Source of the DNA: Shigella phage SGF2
Length of the DNA stretch: 64,000 nt
Direction: 5' to 3' (one strand)
Sequence record: MN148435
The position numbers and the translations under genes are program-made. Position 1 is the stretch's first letter. The number at the start of each line of letters is the position of its first letter. Positions 11,166-45,478 of the stretch are shown piece after piece. The notes under the pieces were generated by a model. It was given only the letters and a program-made list of their open reading frames with translations, was not told where the DNA came from and made no database searches.

Positions 11166-11174
11166 TAATGTATA
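11166..11174 (+). promoter_or_regulatory. TAATGTATA promoter-like motif
   Basis: exact 9-mer 34 nt upstream of ATG 11208, downstream of terminator. Confidence 0.45.
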
Positions 11175-11207
11175 TTCTTTGTCTACATATAACAAGGAGG
11201 ACAACCT

Positions 11208-11960
11208 ATGGCAATGCCAGATGTTCAATACCCCATCAATACCTATGGGTGGCTAAAGAAGGCCGTGGCCCTCTGGGCAGATAGGGACGATGACGAATTT
11301 GTTAATCAAATTCCAAACTTTATTAACTTTGCAGAGAAAGAGATTTATCGTAATTTACGTATTCCTCCTCTGGAAAAAGAAGTATATTTAGATATTAAAG
11401 ATGGAGTAGCTTACATTCCTCCTGATTACTTAGAAGCTCAATGGATGATGAGAGCCAGAGATGGTACAATCTTCCAAGTAACATCTCCTGAAGAGATTAG
11501 CTATCGTAGGCAGCATGGAACAATTAACCCATCTCATTGGAATAACCAACCTGTTAACTTTGCTCGTTTCGGTAGTCGTTTCATTTTCTACCCTAGCATT
11601 GAAGCAGATACTCCTGTTTATCCTGATGATGGAAGTCCTTTGATTCCAGCAGAAAACTCAGTAATTCTTAGTTATTATGCAGACCCACCGGAATTCCATG
11701 AAGATACAGATACCAGTGCTATCCTTACTATTGCACCAGAACTTCTTCTGTACTTCACCCTACGTCATGCTTGTCTCTTTGTTCAAGATGATAATGGTGT
11801 TCAGAAATGGTCAGCATTAGGAAAAGCTATCCTTGATGAAATGGTAGAGCAGAATAAGAAACAAGAGTACTCAGGTTCACCTATCGCAATTCCGAATAAC
11901 ATGACTCGGCTTCAGAGCAGCTTGCCTGATATTTATGGTATTCGTACTTCTCGTGTATAA
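11208..11960 (+). CDS. hypothetical virion protein
   Basis: 250-aa ORF in structural module; AGGAGG RBS. Confidence 0.45.
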   Translation: MAMPDVQYPINTYGWLKKAVALWADRDDDEFVNQIPNFINFAEKEIYRNLRIPPLEKEVYLDIKDGVAYIPPDYLEAQWMMRARDGTIFQVTSPEEISYRRQHGTINPSHWNNQPVNFARFGSRFIFYPSIEADTPVYPDDGSPLIPAENSVILSYYADPPEFHEDTDTSAILTIAPELLLYFTLRHACLFVQDDNGVQKWSALGKAILDEMVEQNKKQEYSGSPIAIPNNMTRLQSSLPDIYGIRTSRV

Positions 11961-38010: not shown

Positions 38011-38027
38011 ATGTATAGTATACATTA
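38011..38027. promoter_or_regulatory. palindrome ATGTATAGTATACAT carrying TAATGTATA on - strand
   Basis: - strand 9-mer at 38027..38019, ~60 nt upstream of SSB-like gene start; + strand reads TTATGTATA. Confidence 0.4.
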
Positions 38028-38090: not shown

Positions 38091-38099
38091 TAATGTATA
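38091..38099 (+). promoter_or_regulatory. TAATGTATA motif on + strand inside - strand gene block
   Basis: exact 9-mer; followed by ~280 nt lacking ATG-initiated ORFs. Confidence 0.3.
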
Positions 38100-38376
38100 T
38101 ATTGTATAGCTGATAAAGCTATTGCAGGCTTGTATATTGGGCAATTCACAGAATCCCTTGCAAGTACCGAAGGGCAGGAGCCACCTGCGAGATAAAAATA
38201 GAGAATTAAGGAATCCTTGATTTAGGTTGTAGGGACTCCTAGGGACTTTGATTCTCTATTTAAAAAGAATATTAATTACTTACTACCTAAATAATTAACT
38301 AACTTACTTAAACCAAATTCAATAAGAATAGATAAAAAGATTATTCCTAAGAAAGCTAAAAAGTATAGAATATAAG

Positions 38377-38559
38377 TTACCATTCAAGTAAACCTTTAAA
38401 GTTAGATTTTTCTACTATTCGCTGATAGTGAAGATTAGAATCAGCTTGTTTCTTTAACATCTCATTATGTTGATCTCTGATATAATCCCTATAAACCATA
38501 CGTTCTTTGAGTAACGAAATTTTCTTTCTTTCAGAGCTTAAATAGTACATCCTAGACAT
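38377..38559 (-). CDS. hypothetical small protein
   Basis: 60-aa ORF. Confidence 0.3.
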   Translation of the reverse strand: MSRMYYLSSERKKISLLKERMVYRDYIRDQHNEMLKKQADSNLHYQRIVEKSNFKGLLEW

Positions 38560-38732
38560 TCAAAGTCTCCACTGAGAGATTCCTGTAACAAATGACTCTG
38601 TTCATCAGAGACTAATTGATTCACTACTTTCTGTAATTCTAATAAATCATCAAAATCGATCATCATACCTTCATCGAGTTTATCTGTATCAACCGACCAG
38701 AAAGGGTTATCTCCTAGCATTTTACTAATCAT
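38538..38732 (-). CDS. hypothetical small protein
   Basis: 64-aa acidic ORF. Confidence 0.35.
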   Translation of the reverse strand: MISKMLGDNPFWSVDTDKLDEGMMIDFDDLLELQKVVNQLVSDEQSHLLQESLSGDFECLGCTI

Positions 38733-38950
38733 TCTACATCTCCTTGTTTATTGTTAATAACATCCAGTGCTGTATAAGCTTTACCTGTTCCTAGATATTC
38801 TAGAACTGGAGGATTCTTCTTTTCTTCAGCGACTACATAAGGTGTGATCTTCCCTTTCAGTACAGCCTGAGATGCCTTAGCACTGGCTTCAGACGTGTGA
38901 ACAGTAGTAAGCCCTTTCTTTCCTATTCTATAAGTGTGAATCCAAATCAT
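38729..38950 (-). CDS. hypothetical small protein
   Basis: track ORF 38729..38971; ATG 38950 gives ATGA overlap with upstream stop. Confidence 0.35.
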   Translation of the reverse strand: MIWIHTYRIGKKGLTTVHTSEASAKASQAVLKGKITPYVVAEEKKNPPVLEYLGTGKAYTALDVINNKQGDVE

Positions 38951-39114
38951 GCTTCTTCCTCGTATTCCCAATTTCTTTCATAATATCCAGAGTTATAGTT
39001 TAGGGCGCACTTCTCGGCCTCTTCTATATCGTCAGTGTTTAGGATATTAACCCATCCACCAACTTCATCAAAACCTTCTTCTACCTCGTTAAACCATACA
39101 CTATACTTTTTCAT
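38947..39114 (-). CDS. hypothetical small acidic protein
   Basis: track ORF 38947..39147; ATG 39114 (MKKYSVWF) gives ATGA overlap with upstream stop. Confidence 0.35.
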   Translation of the reverse strand: MKKYSVWFNEVEEGFDEVGGWVNILNTDDIEEAEKCALNYNSGYYERNWEYEEEA

Positions 39115-39287
39115 CGAGAAGTTCTTCCCCAATCTTTTACATAGCATCGACCATTAACCCACTTTGTCTCTGATTTAAATTCCTGAGACATTCGTACTTC
39201 GCAGTCTTCTCTACTGGCATCTCCTCCGATATCAATCAGATACAGGAATAGAGCTATACCTAAAGCCCAAAGAATTATCTTCTTCAT
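39111..39287 (-). CDS. small membrane protein
   Basis: 58-aa ORF MKKIILWALGIALFLYLIDIGG... with N-terminal TM; ATGA overlaps at both ends. Confidence 0.35.
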   Translation of the reverse strand: MKKIILWALGIALFLYLIDIGGDASREDCEVRMSQEFKSETKWVNGRCYVKDWGRTSR

Positions 39288-40818: not shown

Positions 40819-42663
40819 TCAATGGGTATGCATCCAGTTAAGTCCAATCTGACAATCAGAAGCCAGAGGACATTCCATGTTCAAATATTCACCAGCCTTC
40901 TTAACACAAAGCTCGGTGTGTTCTTTGAGTTTCTGTACATCATTACGGTTCACTGAGAACTGGCCCTCATCGTGCATATCAATTACCTTAGCACAACGAA
41001 CCTTATCTTTCTCAATCCACTTGTTAAGGAACATCATAGCATATTTCATAACAACAGCACCAGCACATTGAAGGAGAGTATTAAGAGCTTTATGAACCAT
41101 AACTTTACCAGTGGCATCTCGTCTCATTGTAATCTTACGACCATCAACACCAATCAAGTATCCTTGAGCAGCTTTCTCTGTCATACGATCAATGAGGATT
41201 GCAATACATGGATTCTCTGCCAAGAAACGTGCTCGCATCACTGAACCTTCGTCAGCCCCACCACCTACAATTGAACCAAGCTTAGCATCACCAGCACCAT
41301 AGTTGAATGCGTAGATAAACGTCTTAGCGTTGTCACGAGTAGGAAGACCAGCAAGTTTCTGGTTGTGGGAGTGGATATCACCTTCAAGGAGAATATCACG
41401 ATACATAATAGCAGAAGCTAAACCACGCTCTGCCAGAGCTTTCTTAGCTGGATTATTCTCTTCGATTGCTTCAGCAAGCATATCCCTACACTCTTTAATG
41501 AGGTAGTGTGCGAGCATACGCAATTCTAATCCAGAACCATCATACCCTAAGAATACTTCTTTACCAGCGGGTATGTAATATTTGTAAGCACCTACAGGTT
41601 TATCTTTCTTCCCCGGCTTACCTTTCTCATAAATTACGTTAGTACCTTTTCGTATATAACAACCATCAGGAACAACGTTAGTAATAATGAAAGGACGAGA
41701 GTGATCATCATCTGAGTTATAGTCAGACTCAAACAAACCGCGACACTCATGACCAAACAAACCACGGGAGGGAATATTAACCACGATACGATGTTTGAAT
41801 CGAAAAGTCGGCGTAGCGCAGCTGTTAGCTTCTGCCGAAAGTTTACCATCTTCGCGTTCCTTTGCTATGAGTCCACTGATAAGACCTAGCCTGTGAGCCG
41901 CTACAACGCGTCTCTTAAGCAAACTTCCGACACTCCCTAGCTCACCCCCTAACCCTTCTTCAAGAGTCTCCTCGAGGTTTGTAGGAGCTGTAGGCCACTT
42001 GTTTGAGGTAGCTAGTGCTATCTTAATCTCATCAAAAGTGATAGGTCTACGTCGGTTAGGATTTAAACCTAAACCAAACACATAAGCCTTCATATAGTTC
42101 TTAGTTTTAAACCGAAAATGCTTCTCTAAGAACTTTCTAATATCAGCGTCAACCATCTCGGCTGTCTGCTTCTGTTTAGCATTACCTCGCATCCAAGCTG
42201 AATACCACGCTTGGTATGTTCCATACTTTCGCATATCTTTCTTGATTTCAAAAGTATTCCAAGGTTTCTTTGATACGTTAAACTCTGGAGGAAGAAAGCC
42301 CTCATCCATAAGGGCTTCTTTAACTCGTGCATCTTTCGATGGGTCAAAGTCTACATATTCAACACAGGTGAATGCTCCACCAATGTCTTCTCTCTTAAGA
42401 CCAACTCTATCACAATAGGCTTGAGGCCACTTCTGTAAAGCTCCAGACTTCTTAAATGGCTTCATATAAGTAGAGCCATCTAGTCTCATCTTAGGTAAGA
42501 GAGGAATCAATTCTTTATCAATATTAACAATAATCTCTTTAAGGAGGTGAACATACCACCGAGCATTTCTTCGGTTGAAACTCACTCCGTGCTTCGCTTG
42601 CTTAGAGATTATATCAGCGACAGTCATCTCTGTCAAAAATGGGAGAGCGTCCGGGTTGCTCAC
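40819..42663 (-). CDS. DNA polymerase, family A (polymerase domain only)
   Basis: motif A LGYDGSGLELR, motif B RDNAKTFIYAFNYG, motif C VIDMHDE; no DEDD exonuclease motifs in this 614-aa protein. Confidence 0.8.
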   Translation of the reverse strand: MSNPDALPFLTEMTVADIISKQAKHGVSFNRRNARWYVHLLKEIIVNIDKELIPLLPKMRLDGSTYMKPFKKSGALQKWPQAYCDRVGLKREDIGGAFTCVEYVDFDPSKDARVKEALMDEGFLPPEFNVSKKPWNTFEIKKDMRKYGTYQAWYSAWMRGNAKQKQTAEMVDADIRKFLEKHFRFKTKNYMKAYVFGLGLNPNRRRPITFDEIKIALATSNKWPTAPTNLEETLEEGLGGELGSVGSLLKRRVVAAHRLGLISGLIAKEREDGKLSAEANSCATPTFRFKHRIVVNIPSRGLFGHECRGLFESDYNSDDDHSRPFIITNVVPDGCYIRKGTNVIYEKGKPGKKDKPVGAYKYYIPAGKEVFLGYDGSGLELRMLAHYLIKECRDMLAEAIEENNPAKKALAERGLASAIMYRDILLEGDIHSHNQKLAGLPTRDNAKTFIYAFNYGAGDAKLGSIVGGGADEGSVMRARFLAENPCIAILIDRMTEKAAQGYLIGVDGRKITMRRDATGKVMVHKALNTLLQCAGAVVMKYAMMFLNKWIEKDKVRCAKVIDMHDEGQFSVNRNDVQKLKEHTELCVKKAGEYLNMECPLASDCQIGLNWMHTH

Positions 42664-43840: not shown

Positions 43841-43869
43841 AAAAGAAAAGGCCACCCATTTGGGTAGCC
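43841..43869 (-). terminator. intrinsic terminator
   Basis: - strand ggcuaccc-aaau-ggguggcc followed by UUUUCUUUU, just downstream of HNH gene. Confidence 0.45.
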
Positions 43870-43885
43870 TCATATTACGATGAGC

Positions 43886-44377
43886 TTAAAGCTCCTTTAA
43901 AGCATGGAGTATAGCTGTATGGCTCACGCCAAACAACTTACCAAGACCTCTAGAGCCAAAATCCCTAGAACCCTTCACATACATCTGTTTAATCTTTACA
44001 ACATCTCCAGAGGATAATTTGGTCATTCCGTTATTGTCACGAGTATGCCCTTTATTCAACCCTGTATCAAAGGAATGTTGTATGTTTTCAGAAGCGGATA
44101 CCCATTCAAGATTCTCCAGTCGATTATCGTCTTTTATCCCATTGATGTGGTTGACTTCTGGATAATTGTTAGGGTTTGGTATAAAGTGCGTAGCTATAAG
44201 TCGGTGCGCTCTCCATCGTCTTCCTTGGAAATACACACCGATATAGCCTTTCGATATCATACATCCAGCTATCTTTCCGGGGTGGCTTTTGTTCCACATC
44301 ACTCCTTTGCTAGGAGATTTTGTGTAATATAGGTTACCTGTGACCGCATCGTAAGATAAGGTGTCATCAAGAACCAC
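43886..44377 (-). CDS. HNH homing endonuclease
   Basis: EVNHINGIKDDNRLENLEWVSASEN HNH signature plus C-terminal helix-turn-helix-like LGKLFGVSHTAILHALKEL. Confidence 0.65.
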   Translation of the reverse strand: MVLDDTLSYDAVTGNLYYTKSPSKGVMWNKSHPGKIAGCMISKGYIGVYFQGRRWRAHRLIATHFIPNPNNYPEVNHINGIKDDNRLENLEWVSASENIQHSFDTGLNKGHTRDNNGMTKLSSGDVVKIKQMYVKGSRDFGSRGLGKLFGVSHTAILHALKEL

Positions 44378-44684
44378 TCAACGCCCCCTTCCTAGCTCCG
44401 TTTGCTTTTCCAGCTCGATCACCACTTTTGCCGCCGTTTGAACGGTTTGAGCTGACTGATTCAACACGTAAGTTGCTTGACGCATTAGAGCCTCCAGACT
44501 TGACAGCTCGTTTGTGTCCAACATCTTTACCTCTGACAGCAGCTTTTCCATCGCGCTTTTCAACGATGCGACGTGCACGGTGGCGCTGAGCATCTCCGCT
44601 CTTGCTCCCAATGCCTGTCTCACCACGGGCAATTGCGGTACGTCTTTCTTGTGCATAATCTCTCTTTCCTACATGATCTGCCAT
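44367..44684 (-). CDS. basic K/R/G/S-rich low-complexity protein
   Basis: ATG 44684 with AAGGAG RBS downstream of TAATGTATA; 105 aa; an alternative 92-aa ORF (44378..44656) fully overlaps in another frame. Confidence 0.4.
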   Translation of the reverse strand: MADHVGKRDYAQERRTAIARGETGIGSKSGDAQRHRARRIVEKRDGKAAVRGKDVGHKRAVKSGGSNASSNLRVESVSSNRSNGGKSGDRAGKANGARKGALSGS

Positions 44685-44720
44685 TTAGAACTCCTTAATA
44701 TATCAGTGTACACTAAGGAG

Positions 44721-44729
44721 TATACATTA
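44721..44729 (-). promoter_or_regulatory. TAATGTATA promoter-like motif
   Basis: - strand 9-mer 36 nt upstream of ATG 44684. Confidence 0.45.
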
Positions 44730-44740
44730 TAAGTTACTGT

Positions 44741-45478
44741 TTAAGCTTTCTTTTCCATTGCTTTAACAATCGCCTTACAGAAACCAGAACGAACAATATC
44801 ATCTGATTCACCATCTACAATCTCAGCAAACTCATACAGATCGTGTTCATCAATAAAGTTAGTAGCCCAAGTTAGACCACTCTCACGACCACGCATGTCA
44901 TGCTGGTTTGTATCACCCATGCAGAACAGCTGAGAGGTTTCCCCCAATCGAGTCATGATGGAGAAGGCTTCATCTTTAGTTGTGTTCTGGAACTCATCAA
45001 CAATAACAATAGCATCATTGAAAGAACGACCACGGAGATATTCCAGAGGTACGAACTCAATGTTACTATTACCGAGCTGGCATTCATAGAACCCCTTACC
45101 GTACCGCTGAGTAATAACATCAATGATAGGCATCAGGTAAGGTTCAAACTTCTCACGCATTCCTCCCGGAAGCAACCCAAGAGAGTTGCCCATTCCAACT
45201 GAAGGACGACTCAGGATAATCTTCTGAATCTTACCACTCTTCAATGCATCAATAACTGTGGAAGTGATTACAAAGGTCTTACCACAGCCCGCAGGAGCGT
45301 CTGTGAACACAACTTGCTTAGTCTTGATAGCGTTGAGTAGCTCAGACTGAAACTGGTTCTGAGGGACTACAGGCTTTGCTAAAACCACCTCTTCAAACTC
45401 TCGCTTACCCTTACGAGTGACAAGTGCTTCCCGACGAAGGTCTTTCCGTGATTCTTTCCGTGATTGACGACGACTCAT
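44741..45478 (-). CDS. phoH: PhoH-like ATPase
   Basis: Walker A DAPAGCGKTFV, Walker B IVIVDEFQN; 245 aa. Confidence 0.65.
   Translation of the reverse strand: MSRRQSRKESRKDLRREALVTRKGKREFEEVVLAKPVVPQNQFQSELLNAIKTKQVVFTDAPAGCGKTFVITSTVIDALKSGKIQKIILSRPSVGMGNSLGLLPGGMREKFEPYLMPIIDVITQRYGKGFYECQLGNSNIEFVPLEYLRGRSFNDAIVIVDEFQNTTKDEAFSIMTRLGETSQLFCMGDTNQHDMRGRESGLTWATNFIDEHDLYEFAEIVDGESDDIVRSGFCKAIVKAMEKKA

Follow-up and report, generated by a model that had tools for sequence, protein, structure and literature searches.

The minus strand of Shigella phage SGF2 (sequence record MN148435) carries, between the genes for PhoH and a family A DNA polymerase, two long open reading frames (ORFs) that overlap completely: one of 105 codons, encoding a basic protein, and one of 92 codons that lies wholly inside it in the +1 frame. 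The 64,000-nucleotide stretch that contains them is the whole of the DNA that was analyzed (hereafter, the window). A sequence-only reading of this stretch, made from its letters without database searches, had singled out the pair together with a promoter motif and an inverted repeat in front of it and had offered two possibilities—dual coding or one spurious ORF. Both ORFs, each with an ATG start, are present as that reading described them (Table 1). The region matches ~97 Escherichia and Shigella phages of the Gordonclarkvirinae at 78 to 99% identity, from the genera Kuravirus (phiEco32-like), Nieuwekanaalvirus, and Suseptimavirus, and the window is that of a Kuravirus, phiEco32-like phage. 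For detailed comparison, the locus was taken from 20 diverse relatives, and wider checks were made over 97 close-relative records. Along the minus strand, the gene order is PhoH, the 105-codon ORF, an HNH homing-endonuclease gene, a terminator, several small genes, and the DNA polymerase. The homing-endonuclease gene sits between the 105-codon ORF and the terminator, overlaps the last 11 nucleotides (nt) of that ORF, and is found in only some of the relatives; in phiEco32, the promoter, gene 58, and a terminator of the same sequence as in SGF2 follow one another directly. The products of this gene (phi32_58) and of its counterpart in phage SU10 (gp56) are orthologues, 96 to 99% identical in protein to the 105-residue product of SGF2, and the three genes agree in promoter (P58), in leader, and in their place between phoH and the DNA polymerase gene. 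SGF2 differs from the phi32_58 locus in the homing-endonuclease gene inserted before the terminator and in the end of the protein (GALSGS rather than GALSSS). The papers and records consulted give no function to these orthologues, which stand as hypothetical protein, phrog_4590.

Table 1. Features of the phoH–polymerase region in the SGF2 window (positions are those of the window)
Feature	Position	Strand	Remarks
PhoH gene	44741-45478	-	neighbor upstream of the 105-codon gene
Promoter element TAATGTATA (P58)	44721..44729	-	exact match to the published tAATGTAtA
Hairpin 5' arm, with anti-Shine-Dalgarno CUCCUUA (44720..44714)	44709..44721	-	from folding; almost all upstream of the inferred start
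P58 transcription start, inferred (±1 nt)	44714	-	two published start-site rules
Hairpin 3' arm, with Shine-Dalgarno AAGGAG (44696..44691)	44690..44702	-	from folding
105-codon gene, phi32_58 orthologue	44367..44684	-	ATG start; phrog_4590, E = 2e-40
92-codon ORF	44378..44656	-	ATG start; +1 frame relative to the 105-codon ORF
Invariant 44-nt block, codons K28-E42	44560..44603	-	identical in 97/97 records
Predicted HNH-like core, residues 52-82, beta-beta-alpha	44439..44531	-	H57 44516..44514, N71 44474..44472, N80 44447..44445
HNH homing-endonuclease gene, free-standing	43886..44377	-	Pfam HNH_3, E = 3e-10
Intrinsic terminator, end of the P58 transcription unit	43848..43871	-	10-pair stem, then T-run
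Family A DNA polymerase gene	40819-42663	-	ORF uninterrupted in the SGF2 window

Which of the two frames is the gene? Over 261 indel-free bases in the 20 relatives, variable sites fall 17, 7, and 40 times at codon positions 1, 2, and 3 of the 105-codon frame, and the pooled ratio of nonsynonymous to synonymous differences per site (pN/pS) is 0.16 in this frame, 1.65 in the +1 frame, and 3.3 in the +2 frame. Comparison of the frames across related phages, which had been proposed as a check, thus finds purifying selection in the 105-codon frame only. A tblastn search with the 105-residue protein matched 273 phage records; the homologues, ~90 to 110 residues long, come from phages that include Pseudomonas LUZ24-like and tf-like phages, Vibrio ICP2, Salmonella 7-11, and phages of Aeromonas, Proteus, Cronobacter, and Synechococcus. 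The gene phi32_58 is among those common to the phiEco32 and 7-11 groups (PMC8948821, Table S2). Furthermore, the SU10 orthologue, coding sequence 56, has been seen by mass spectrometry (10.8 kDa, 2 peptides, 18.3% coverage; PMC4281155, Table 2), and the annotated SU10 gp056 is the 105-codon frame at 10.83 kDa, while a product of the +1 frame would be 10.14 kDa. The codon log2-odds score of the frame, 0.54 per codon, is close to the average for the real genes in the window (0.55 ± 0.20). The locally raised GC content that had been noted by eye is borne out (0.51 for the gene, 0.425 for the window), as is the basic character of the protein, with an isoelectric point (pI) of 11.5 and Gly, Arg, Ala, Ser, and Lys making up 69 of its 105 residues. 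Judged from these comparisons, the 105-codon frame is a real, conserved gene and almost certainly the sole protein-coding frame of the pair. Between the two possibilities of the sequence-only reading, the one with a spurious ORF is therefore the better supported—selection, homologues outside the clade, and peptides are all found in the 105-codon frame only—and dual coding is left very unlikely.

If the 92-codon ORF is spurious, how does it come to be so long? A stop in the +1 frame requires a codon of the form NTA or NTG followed by a purine and is thus possible only at Leu, Ile, Val, and Met, and the SGF2 gene has nine codons at risk within the overlap. For comparison, an ordinary gene in the window holds ~4.9 such stops per 100 codons. 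Because a protein rich in Lys, Arg, Gly, Ser, and Ala has few Leu, Ile, Val, and Met codons, its +1 frame is open by default: when the protein was recoded with the codon usage of the window, the +1 frame was stop-free in 12% of trials (7% when the ATG was also required), and the +2 frame was never open. Its persistence in relatives is unsurprising too, since few synonymous changes could create a +1 stop. None of the possible synonymous transitions does so, and only 21 of 204 possible transversions do; for the 13 transversions observed, the probability that none would create a stop is 0.24. The +1 translation itself loses identity exactly as fast as the stop-filled +2 frame (73% and 72% in the comparison with phage 4E8, where the main frame keeps 95%), and a tblastn search with the 92-residue sequence returned only 97 close relatives and no match outside the Gordonclarkvirinae. 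The ORF has a codon log-odds score of -0.03 and a GC content at third codon positions (GC3) of 0.61, compared with 0.36 for real genes in the window. Its start codon, ATG 44656, has no Shine-Dalgarno (SD) sequence at a usable distance; the nearest AGGA, which the other clade does not conserve, is 10 nt off. Amino acid replacements that main-frame synonymous changes cause in the +1 frame are not more conservative than random (BLOSUM test, P = 0.11), and many outside a 44-nt block, to which we return below, are radical. A test for stop-codon avoidance in the +1 frame gave no signal and was without power. Overlapping genes that arose by overprinting are well known in phages, such as lambda Rz/Rz1 and those of phiX174, and the SGF2 pair resembles them in that a long same-strand ORF lies wholly inside another gene and is kept open throughout a clade; it is unlike them in lacking purifying selection, a ribosome-binding site (RBS), and typical codon usage in the inner frame, the openness of which is explained by composition. 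We conclude that the 92-codon ORF is almost certainly a compositional shadow of the gene, most likely without a functional protein product. Peptides predicted from it would be DVPQLPVVR, AEMLSATVHVASLK, MLDTNELSSLEALMR, and QATYVLNQSAQTVQTAAK.

What kind of protein does the gene encode? Searched with a profile, 1.84 billion cluster representatives yielded 868 clusters at E ≤ 1e-3, mostly stand-alone proteins of 80 to 110 residues; counted at 50% identity, the clusters of the family number at least 868. Among 198 members, R8, Y10, E13, R34, A37, R38, H57, G64, G65, N71, and N80 are near-invariant, and the family signature is V-(D/G)-H-x6-GG-x5-N-L-R-x6-N. Of these members, 197 have H57, 193 have N71, and 192 have N80; the SGF2 protein has all three. 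From its sequence, we read this signature as a putative HNH (beta-beta-alpha-metal) motif without the zinc-binding cysteines. The Pfam HNH model is matched by 14 of 36 homologues and HNH_3 by 12 of 36, all below the gathering score (best E, 2e-5). The SGF2 protein itself has no Pfam HNH or NCBIfam match, no curated model reaches threshold (NCBIfam yielded nothing but weak matches to IscB, an HNH-domain protein), and a sequence-profile search of the PDB found nothing. An AlphaFold2 model of the protein has a mean predicted local distance difference test score (pLDDT) of 70, rising to 79 to 87 over residues 31 to 80, with two strands and a helix at the HNH-like motif and a disordered tail from residue 85. 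The Foldseek list for this model consists almost wholly of HNH nucleases, but with E > 1. Among the best structural matches is the Geobacter Gme HNH nicking endonuclease (PDB 4H9D), a stand-alone protein of ~100 residues. The SGF2 protein shares with such stand-alone HNH nucleases a similar size, a His...Asn...Asn series that encloses GG, and what the model suggests may be a beta-beta-alpha core; it differs from them in having no zinc-binding Cys and a Gly in place of the Asp before the catalytic His. The family also has a strongly conserved N-terminal helical region of its own (R8, E13, R34, A37, and R38) that lies outside the Pfam HNH models. The protein thus probably belongs to an uncharacterized, cysteine-less HNH nuclease-like family with a basic disordered tail only at the C terminus. 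The description "low-complexity" that the sequence-only reading gave it fits the C-terminal ~20 residues and fails for residues 8 to 85, with their conserved motifs and predicted fold.

The likely role of such a protein would be DNA binding, possibly with nicking or cutting, in replication or recombination. In other lineages, homologues lie in replication and nucleotide-metabolism modules with a family A polymerase, ThyX, or a DNA ligase, and in tf and LUZ24-like phages, they stand beside a DnaB-like helicase and a polymerase exonuclease subunit. The most distant members (46% identity; locus L044, 2965-4796, and also L041, L043, L045, and L046) are directly upstream of the large terminase gene, an arrangement typical of terminase-associated HNH proteins and unlike the replication-module position elsewhere. 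Phages with cos ends have such terminase-associated HNH proteins, of which HK97 gp74 is an example; these belong to the packaging module, whereas the SGF2 gene is in the replication module. In Proteus phages of the Privateer type (L031, 2383-3339, and L033), the homologue apparently lacks a normal 5' end. A 192-residue ORF just upstream of it, without a Pfam match, opens with the N terminus of the family (MPSSPGYVR) and then diverges into CxxC-containing sequence, as if the 5' end of the homologue gene had received an insertion. Overall, a core gene of phiEco32-like, 7-11-like, LUZ24-like, and many other phages, labeled hypothetical in most of the records consulted, can now be assigned to a distinct cysteine-less HNH-like family.

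How is the gene expressed? The motif TAATGTATA that had been noticed ahead of the gene is present. It is a single element with an exact fit to the consensus tAATGTAtA of a promoter class, the middle/late promoters of phiEco32, that has no -35 element, and the sequence of phiEco32 at P58 is identical to that of SGF2. P58 and its equivalents in NJ01, ECBP2, KBNP1711, SU10, and 172-1 have been catalogued as one of six promoters of the phage sigma factor phi32_gp36 (PMC8948821, Suppl. Table S3). By this identity of sequence, the element is the already published promoter P58. Exact copies of TAATGTATA number 5 in the window, where 0.55 are expected, and none of 100 shuffles reached 5. Transcripts from gp36 promoters start 6 to 8 bp downstream of the element (PMC8948821), and the AATGTA core is centered at -11.5 (PMC12276001). 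Both published rules place the +1 of P58 at A44714, the last base of CUCCUUA.

This position matters because the leader can fold. The RBS that had been reported, AAGGAG, is present 6 nt before the ATG of the 105-codon gene, and the inverted repeat CUCCUUA/UAAGGAG, the second arm of which is 44697..44691, forms the core of a 13-bp stem (Table 1). RNA of 48 nt that begins at 44722 folds at -14.7 kcal/mol (z = -3.6; none of 200 shuffles was as stable), with the SD fully paired. RNA that begins at 44714 folds at -1.3 kcal/mol, less stable than 199 of 200 shuffles, and its SD is unpaired. Since the anti-SD arm has its 3' end at the inferred start, a transcript begun at P58 could not form the hairpin, and only read-through RNA could. 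The occluding hairpin of the sequence-only reading is thus upheld as a fold, but the leader was drawn too long: an RNA begun near 44714 leaves the hairpin behind. There is no convincing minus-strand terminator between phoH and the leader; read-through RNA should therefore exist. The leader and promoter element are identical in 18 of 20 relatives, with one change from U-A to U-G that keeps the pairing. Together, these features suggest a mechanism in which the hairpin sequesters the SD and the promoter is embedded in the DNA for its 5' arm. Transcripts that read through from phoH and upstream would carry both arms and hide the SD, RNA begun at P58 would be without the 5' arm and freely translated, and synthesis of the nuclease-like protein would thereby be tied to the gp36-dependent phase of infection.

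A design of this kind is familiar from T4 and its relatives: in the T4 genes e, soc, 49, and I-TevI and in mobE of Aeh1, a late promoter lies inside the DNA for the 5' strand of a helix that sequesters the SD, and only the late transcript is translated (PMC3014915). The SGF2 leader is like those of e, soc, 49, and I-TevI in having its SD paired in read-through RNA and a promoter whose own transcript would lack the 5' arm; it is like gene 49, I-TevI, and mobE in that the gated gene encodes a nuclease-type protein. It is unlike them in that its promoter consists of one element and is served by the sigma factor of the phage itself, gp36. The P58 leader is thus a probable new instance of T4-type, promoter-dependent translational gating, as judged from folding. 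It looks like a second, independent case of the trick by which T4 hides the RBS of a nuclease gene on early read-through RNA, here with a different sigma factor.

Taken together, the best joint explanation of the locus is a P58 transcription unit with one coding frame that encodes an HNH-like protein, a shadow ORF in the +1 frame, and a leader gated as in T4; we give it a probability of about three in four. In the main, this is a clean-up, in which an apparent dual-coding pair becomes one real gene and a compositional shadow. Several observations weigh against it, here and in the following paragraph. The hairpin has no covariation in its support, because the stem is invariant; the relatives FH3 and Bas86 have neither promoter nor hairpin, owing to an HNH endonuclease gene inserted upstream; and the position of the P58 start is one predicted from published start-site rules. 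Were the transcript from TAATGTATA itself to hold both arms, the hairpin would act as a brake on translation of its own mRNA, either constitutive or relieved by some factor. The unusual stability of the fold and its retention in 18 of 20 relatives would suit such a brake, as does the inferred nature of the start, but the published rules put +1 at ~44714, RNA from there is nearly structure-free, and enough of the SU10 orthologue is made for mass spectrometry to detect it; we regard the brake as improbable. A different role for the hairpin, as a stabilizer or processing site at the 3' end of the phoH message or as a DNA-level feature of the promoter, would account for its location 20 nt past the phoH stop codon, for its conservation along with the promoter, and for the occurrence of other gp36 promoters in or next to inverted repeats (at 38019 and at the anti-SD/SD pair 11175-11199). 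Against this, the stem has no U-run after it and thus cannot be an intrinsic terminator; it is precisely the SD that the 5' arm complements; and the other promoters do not share the sequence just past the element, which removes that sequence as a promoter requirement. A 13-bp stem is also short for RNase III. Such a role is unlikely, although it retains some weight. As to the protein, the residue just ahead of the catalytic His is Gly56 instead of Asp in SGF2, and likewise Gly in all Gordonclarkvirinae examined. Asp in this position is a metal ligand in HNH enzymes (for example, D839-H840 in Cas9), and nuclease activity in the Gordonclarkvirinae may therefore be reduced or lost. Across the 198 members, the residue is Asp in 160 and Gly in 24, and SGF2 has an Asp two residues earlier, Asp54; by these residues, the catalytic competence of the Gordonclarkvirinae members appears uncertain. 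The sequence-only reading had instead proposed a DNA-condensing or internal virion protein, and the pI of 11.5, the disordered Gly/Lys/Ala/Ser tail, and detection of the SU10 orthologue in a preparation concentrated with polyethylene glycol are all in keeping with that. That preparation was not purified on cesium chloride, however, and its authors group the protein with the middle-gene products, together with DNA polymerase and PhoH (PMC4281155); the gene lies in the replication module, not among structural genes, and the conserved core is HNH-like. We find a virion role barely credible.

The remaining points against the joint reading concern the +1 frame. All 20 genomes keep the +1 ORF and its ATG intact, tblastn covers the ORF in 97 of 97 records, and its codon score exceeds that of ordinary +1 frames (-0.03 versus -0.37 ± 0.11). 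In the same genomes, the between-clade difference at fourfold-degenerate sites is 0.26 for the 105-codon gene, compared with 0.47 for PhoH and 0.45 for the DNA polymerase (binomial P = 0.004 for the deficit); pooled differences per synonymous site (pS) are 0.32, 0.45, and 0.47, respectively, and synonymous divergence in the gene is ~60% of that in neighboring genes. The depression is patchy and comes mostly from one 44-nt block, AAGAGCGGAGATGCTCAGCGCCACCGTGCACGTCGCATCGTTGA (codons 28 to 42), which is identical in all 20 genomes and 100% identical in all 97 records; codons just upstream of it vary freely at third positions. The longest invariant runs across the same 20 genomes are 11 nt in the PhoH gene and 14 nt in the DNA polymerase gene, and by permutation, 14 fully invariant codons in a row have a P of 1e-5. 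Depressed synonymous change and an invariant block imply that the coding sequence is under a second constraint, of which a translated +1 frame could be one source. The gene might thus carry a second, overlaid function, which in its most far-reaching version would make the 92-residue +1 ORF a translated, functional, clade-restricted protein with the block (ARAEMLSATVHVASL in that frame) as its constrained core. The mild deficit of +1 stops in the wider family (91 observed versus 122 expected over 40 more distant homologues, which have 0 to 7 each) leans the same way, as does the annotation of the +1 frame in one GenBank record, that of phage YW01. Set against this are the pN/pS of 1.65 and an amino acid identity no better than that of the +2 frame, the radical substitutions outside the block with their BLOSUM P of 0.11, the atypical GC3, the missing SD, the 4 to 7 +1 stops in several distant lineages, and the lack of similarity outside the clade, while openness and retention are both within reach of chance (P = 0.07 to 0.12 and 0.24). 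We hold translation of the +1 ORF as a functional protein, with the block as its core, to be very unlikely. The block itself is a real, small feature and the sole piece of evidence that might favor dual coding, although a cis-acting DNA or RNA site would fit it equally well; it is a sharply bounded ultraconserved element inside a coding sequence.

Several candidate explanations of the block were tried. LUZ24-like relatives vary synonymously at the same codons. RNA structure is unsupported as the source of the constraint: the whole mRNA has a z of -0.08 and the block with its flanks -1.1 and +0.6, and the covariation term of RNAalifold is only -1.85, with 2 of 57 pairs compensatory. The block has no Rfam family (only a spurious mir-62 match below threshold) and no repeat or long-range complement of ≥11 nt elsewhere in the window. 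Mimicry of a host sequence was rejected, as the block has no match in 5,426 Escherichia coli genomes. A homing-endonuclease target is unlikely, since the block is identical in endonuclease-positive and endonuclease-negative genomes; covariation with the downstream endonuclease gene is confined to the final ~30 nt of the 105-codon gene. A replication origin was also set aside, because GC skew merely follows the direction of transcription.

Could the family supply a known but unassigned activity? DNA of tf and LUZ24-like Pseudomonas phages has site-specific nicks at TACT/RTGMC, by an enzyme that was not identified there (PMC3517423 and PMC11780129). Both tf (locus L019) and LUZ24 (gp26) encode homologues of the 105-residue protein, and the family could be the tf/LUZ24 nickase, a speculation that we offer as a long shot. 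Small HNH proteins are natural candidates for such an enzyme. The nick motif TACTRTGMC is not enriched in the SGF2 window, with 41 matches at ≤1 mismatch (47.5 expected) and 1 exact match, and the window has no strongly strand-biased 8- to 10-mer with >9 copies.

Homing endonucleases and misleading annotations surround the gene. A downstream HNH gene that overlaps the stop codon is found in SGF2, 4E8, EC.W2-6, Bas89, YW01, and EK010, and the last ~30 nt of the 105-codon gene (encoding GALSGS or GALSQ instead of GALSSS) covary with this insertion. An alternative HNH gene lies upstream, in place of P58 and the hairpin, in FH3 (L052) and Bas86 (L053), at ~2616-2996. In Bas89 (L047, 4560-6355) and Bas93 (L050, 4130-6354), the DNA polymerase gene is annotated as two joined pieces with an endonuclease gene inside, which suggests an intron or homing element. 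The YW01 record (PV018828.1; L056, 3105-3389) annotates the +1 ORF (XQW40834.1) in place of the conserved gene, so that at least one GenBank record has the wrong frame and the shadow ORF evidently fools gene callers. Elsewhere, the real gene bears unrelated names: "PhoH-like" in the XT18 and VTCCBPA_211 records and "Cas8 protein" in Ptacy phages. A neighboring gene of 84 codons is labeled "autotransporter adhesin," and the homing endonuclease of EK010 is labeled "baseplate subunit."

Other copies of the promoter element also lie near repeats. A second gp36-type promoter, at 11166 on the plus strand (region 11166-11215), is followed directly by UUCUUUGU, which can pair with the SD region ACAAGGAG; its leader fold is statistically ordinary (z = -0.8), making it a weaker example of the P58 design. 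Two exact copies of TAATGTATA, at 38091-38099 on the plus strand and 38019-38027 on the minus strand, form a divergent pair 63 nt apart. The minus-strand copy is at the catalogued P40 position, within the inverted repeat ATGTATA-c-TATACAT; the plus-strand copy, which the catalogue of six promoters does not include, would give transcripts antisense to small genes on the minus strand at 38276-39287. The window also holds a strand-biased 10-mer, TGCTCTGAAT, with 6 copies on the plus strand and 0 on the minus strand (0.21 expected), and its near-complement, CTTCAGAGCA, is present in 5 copies.

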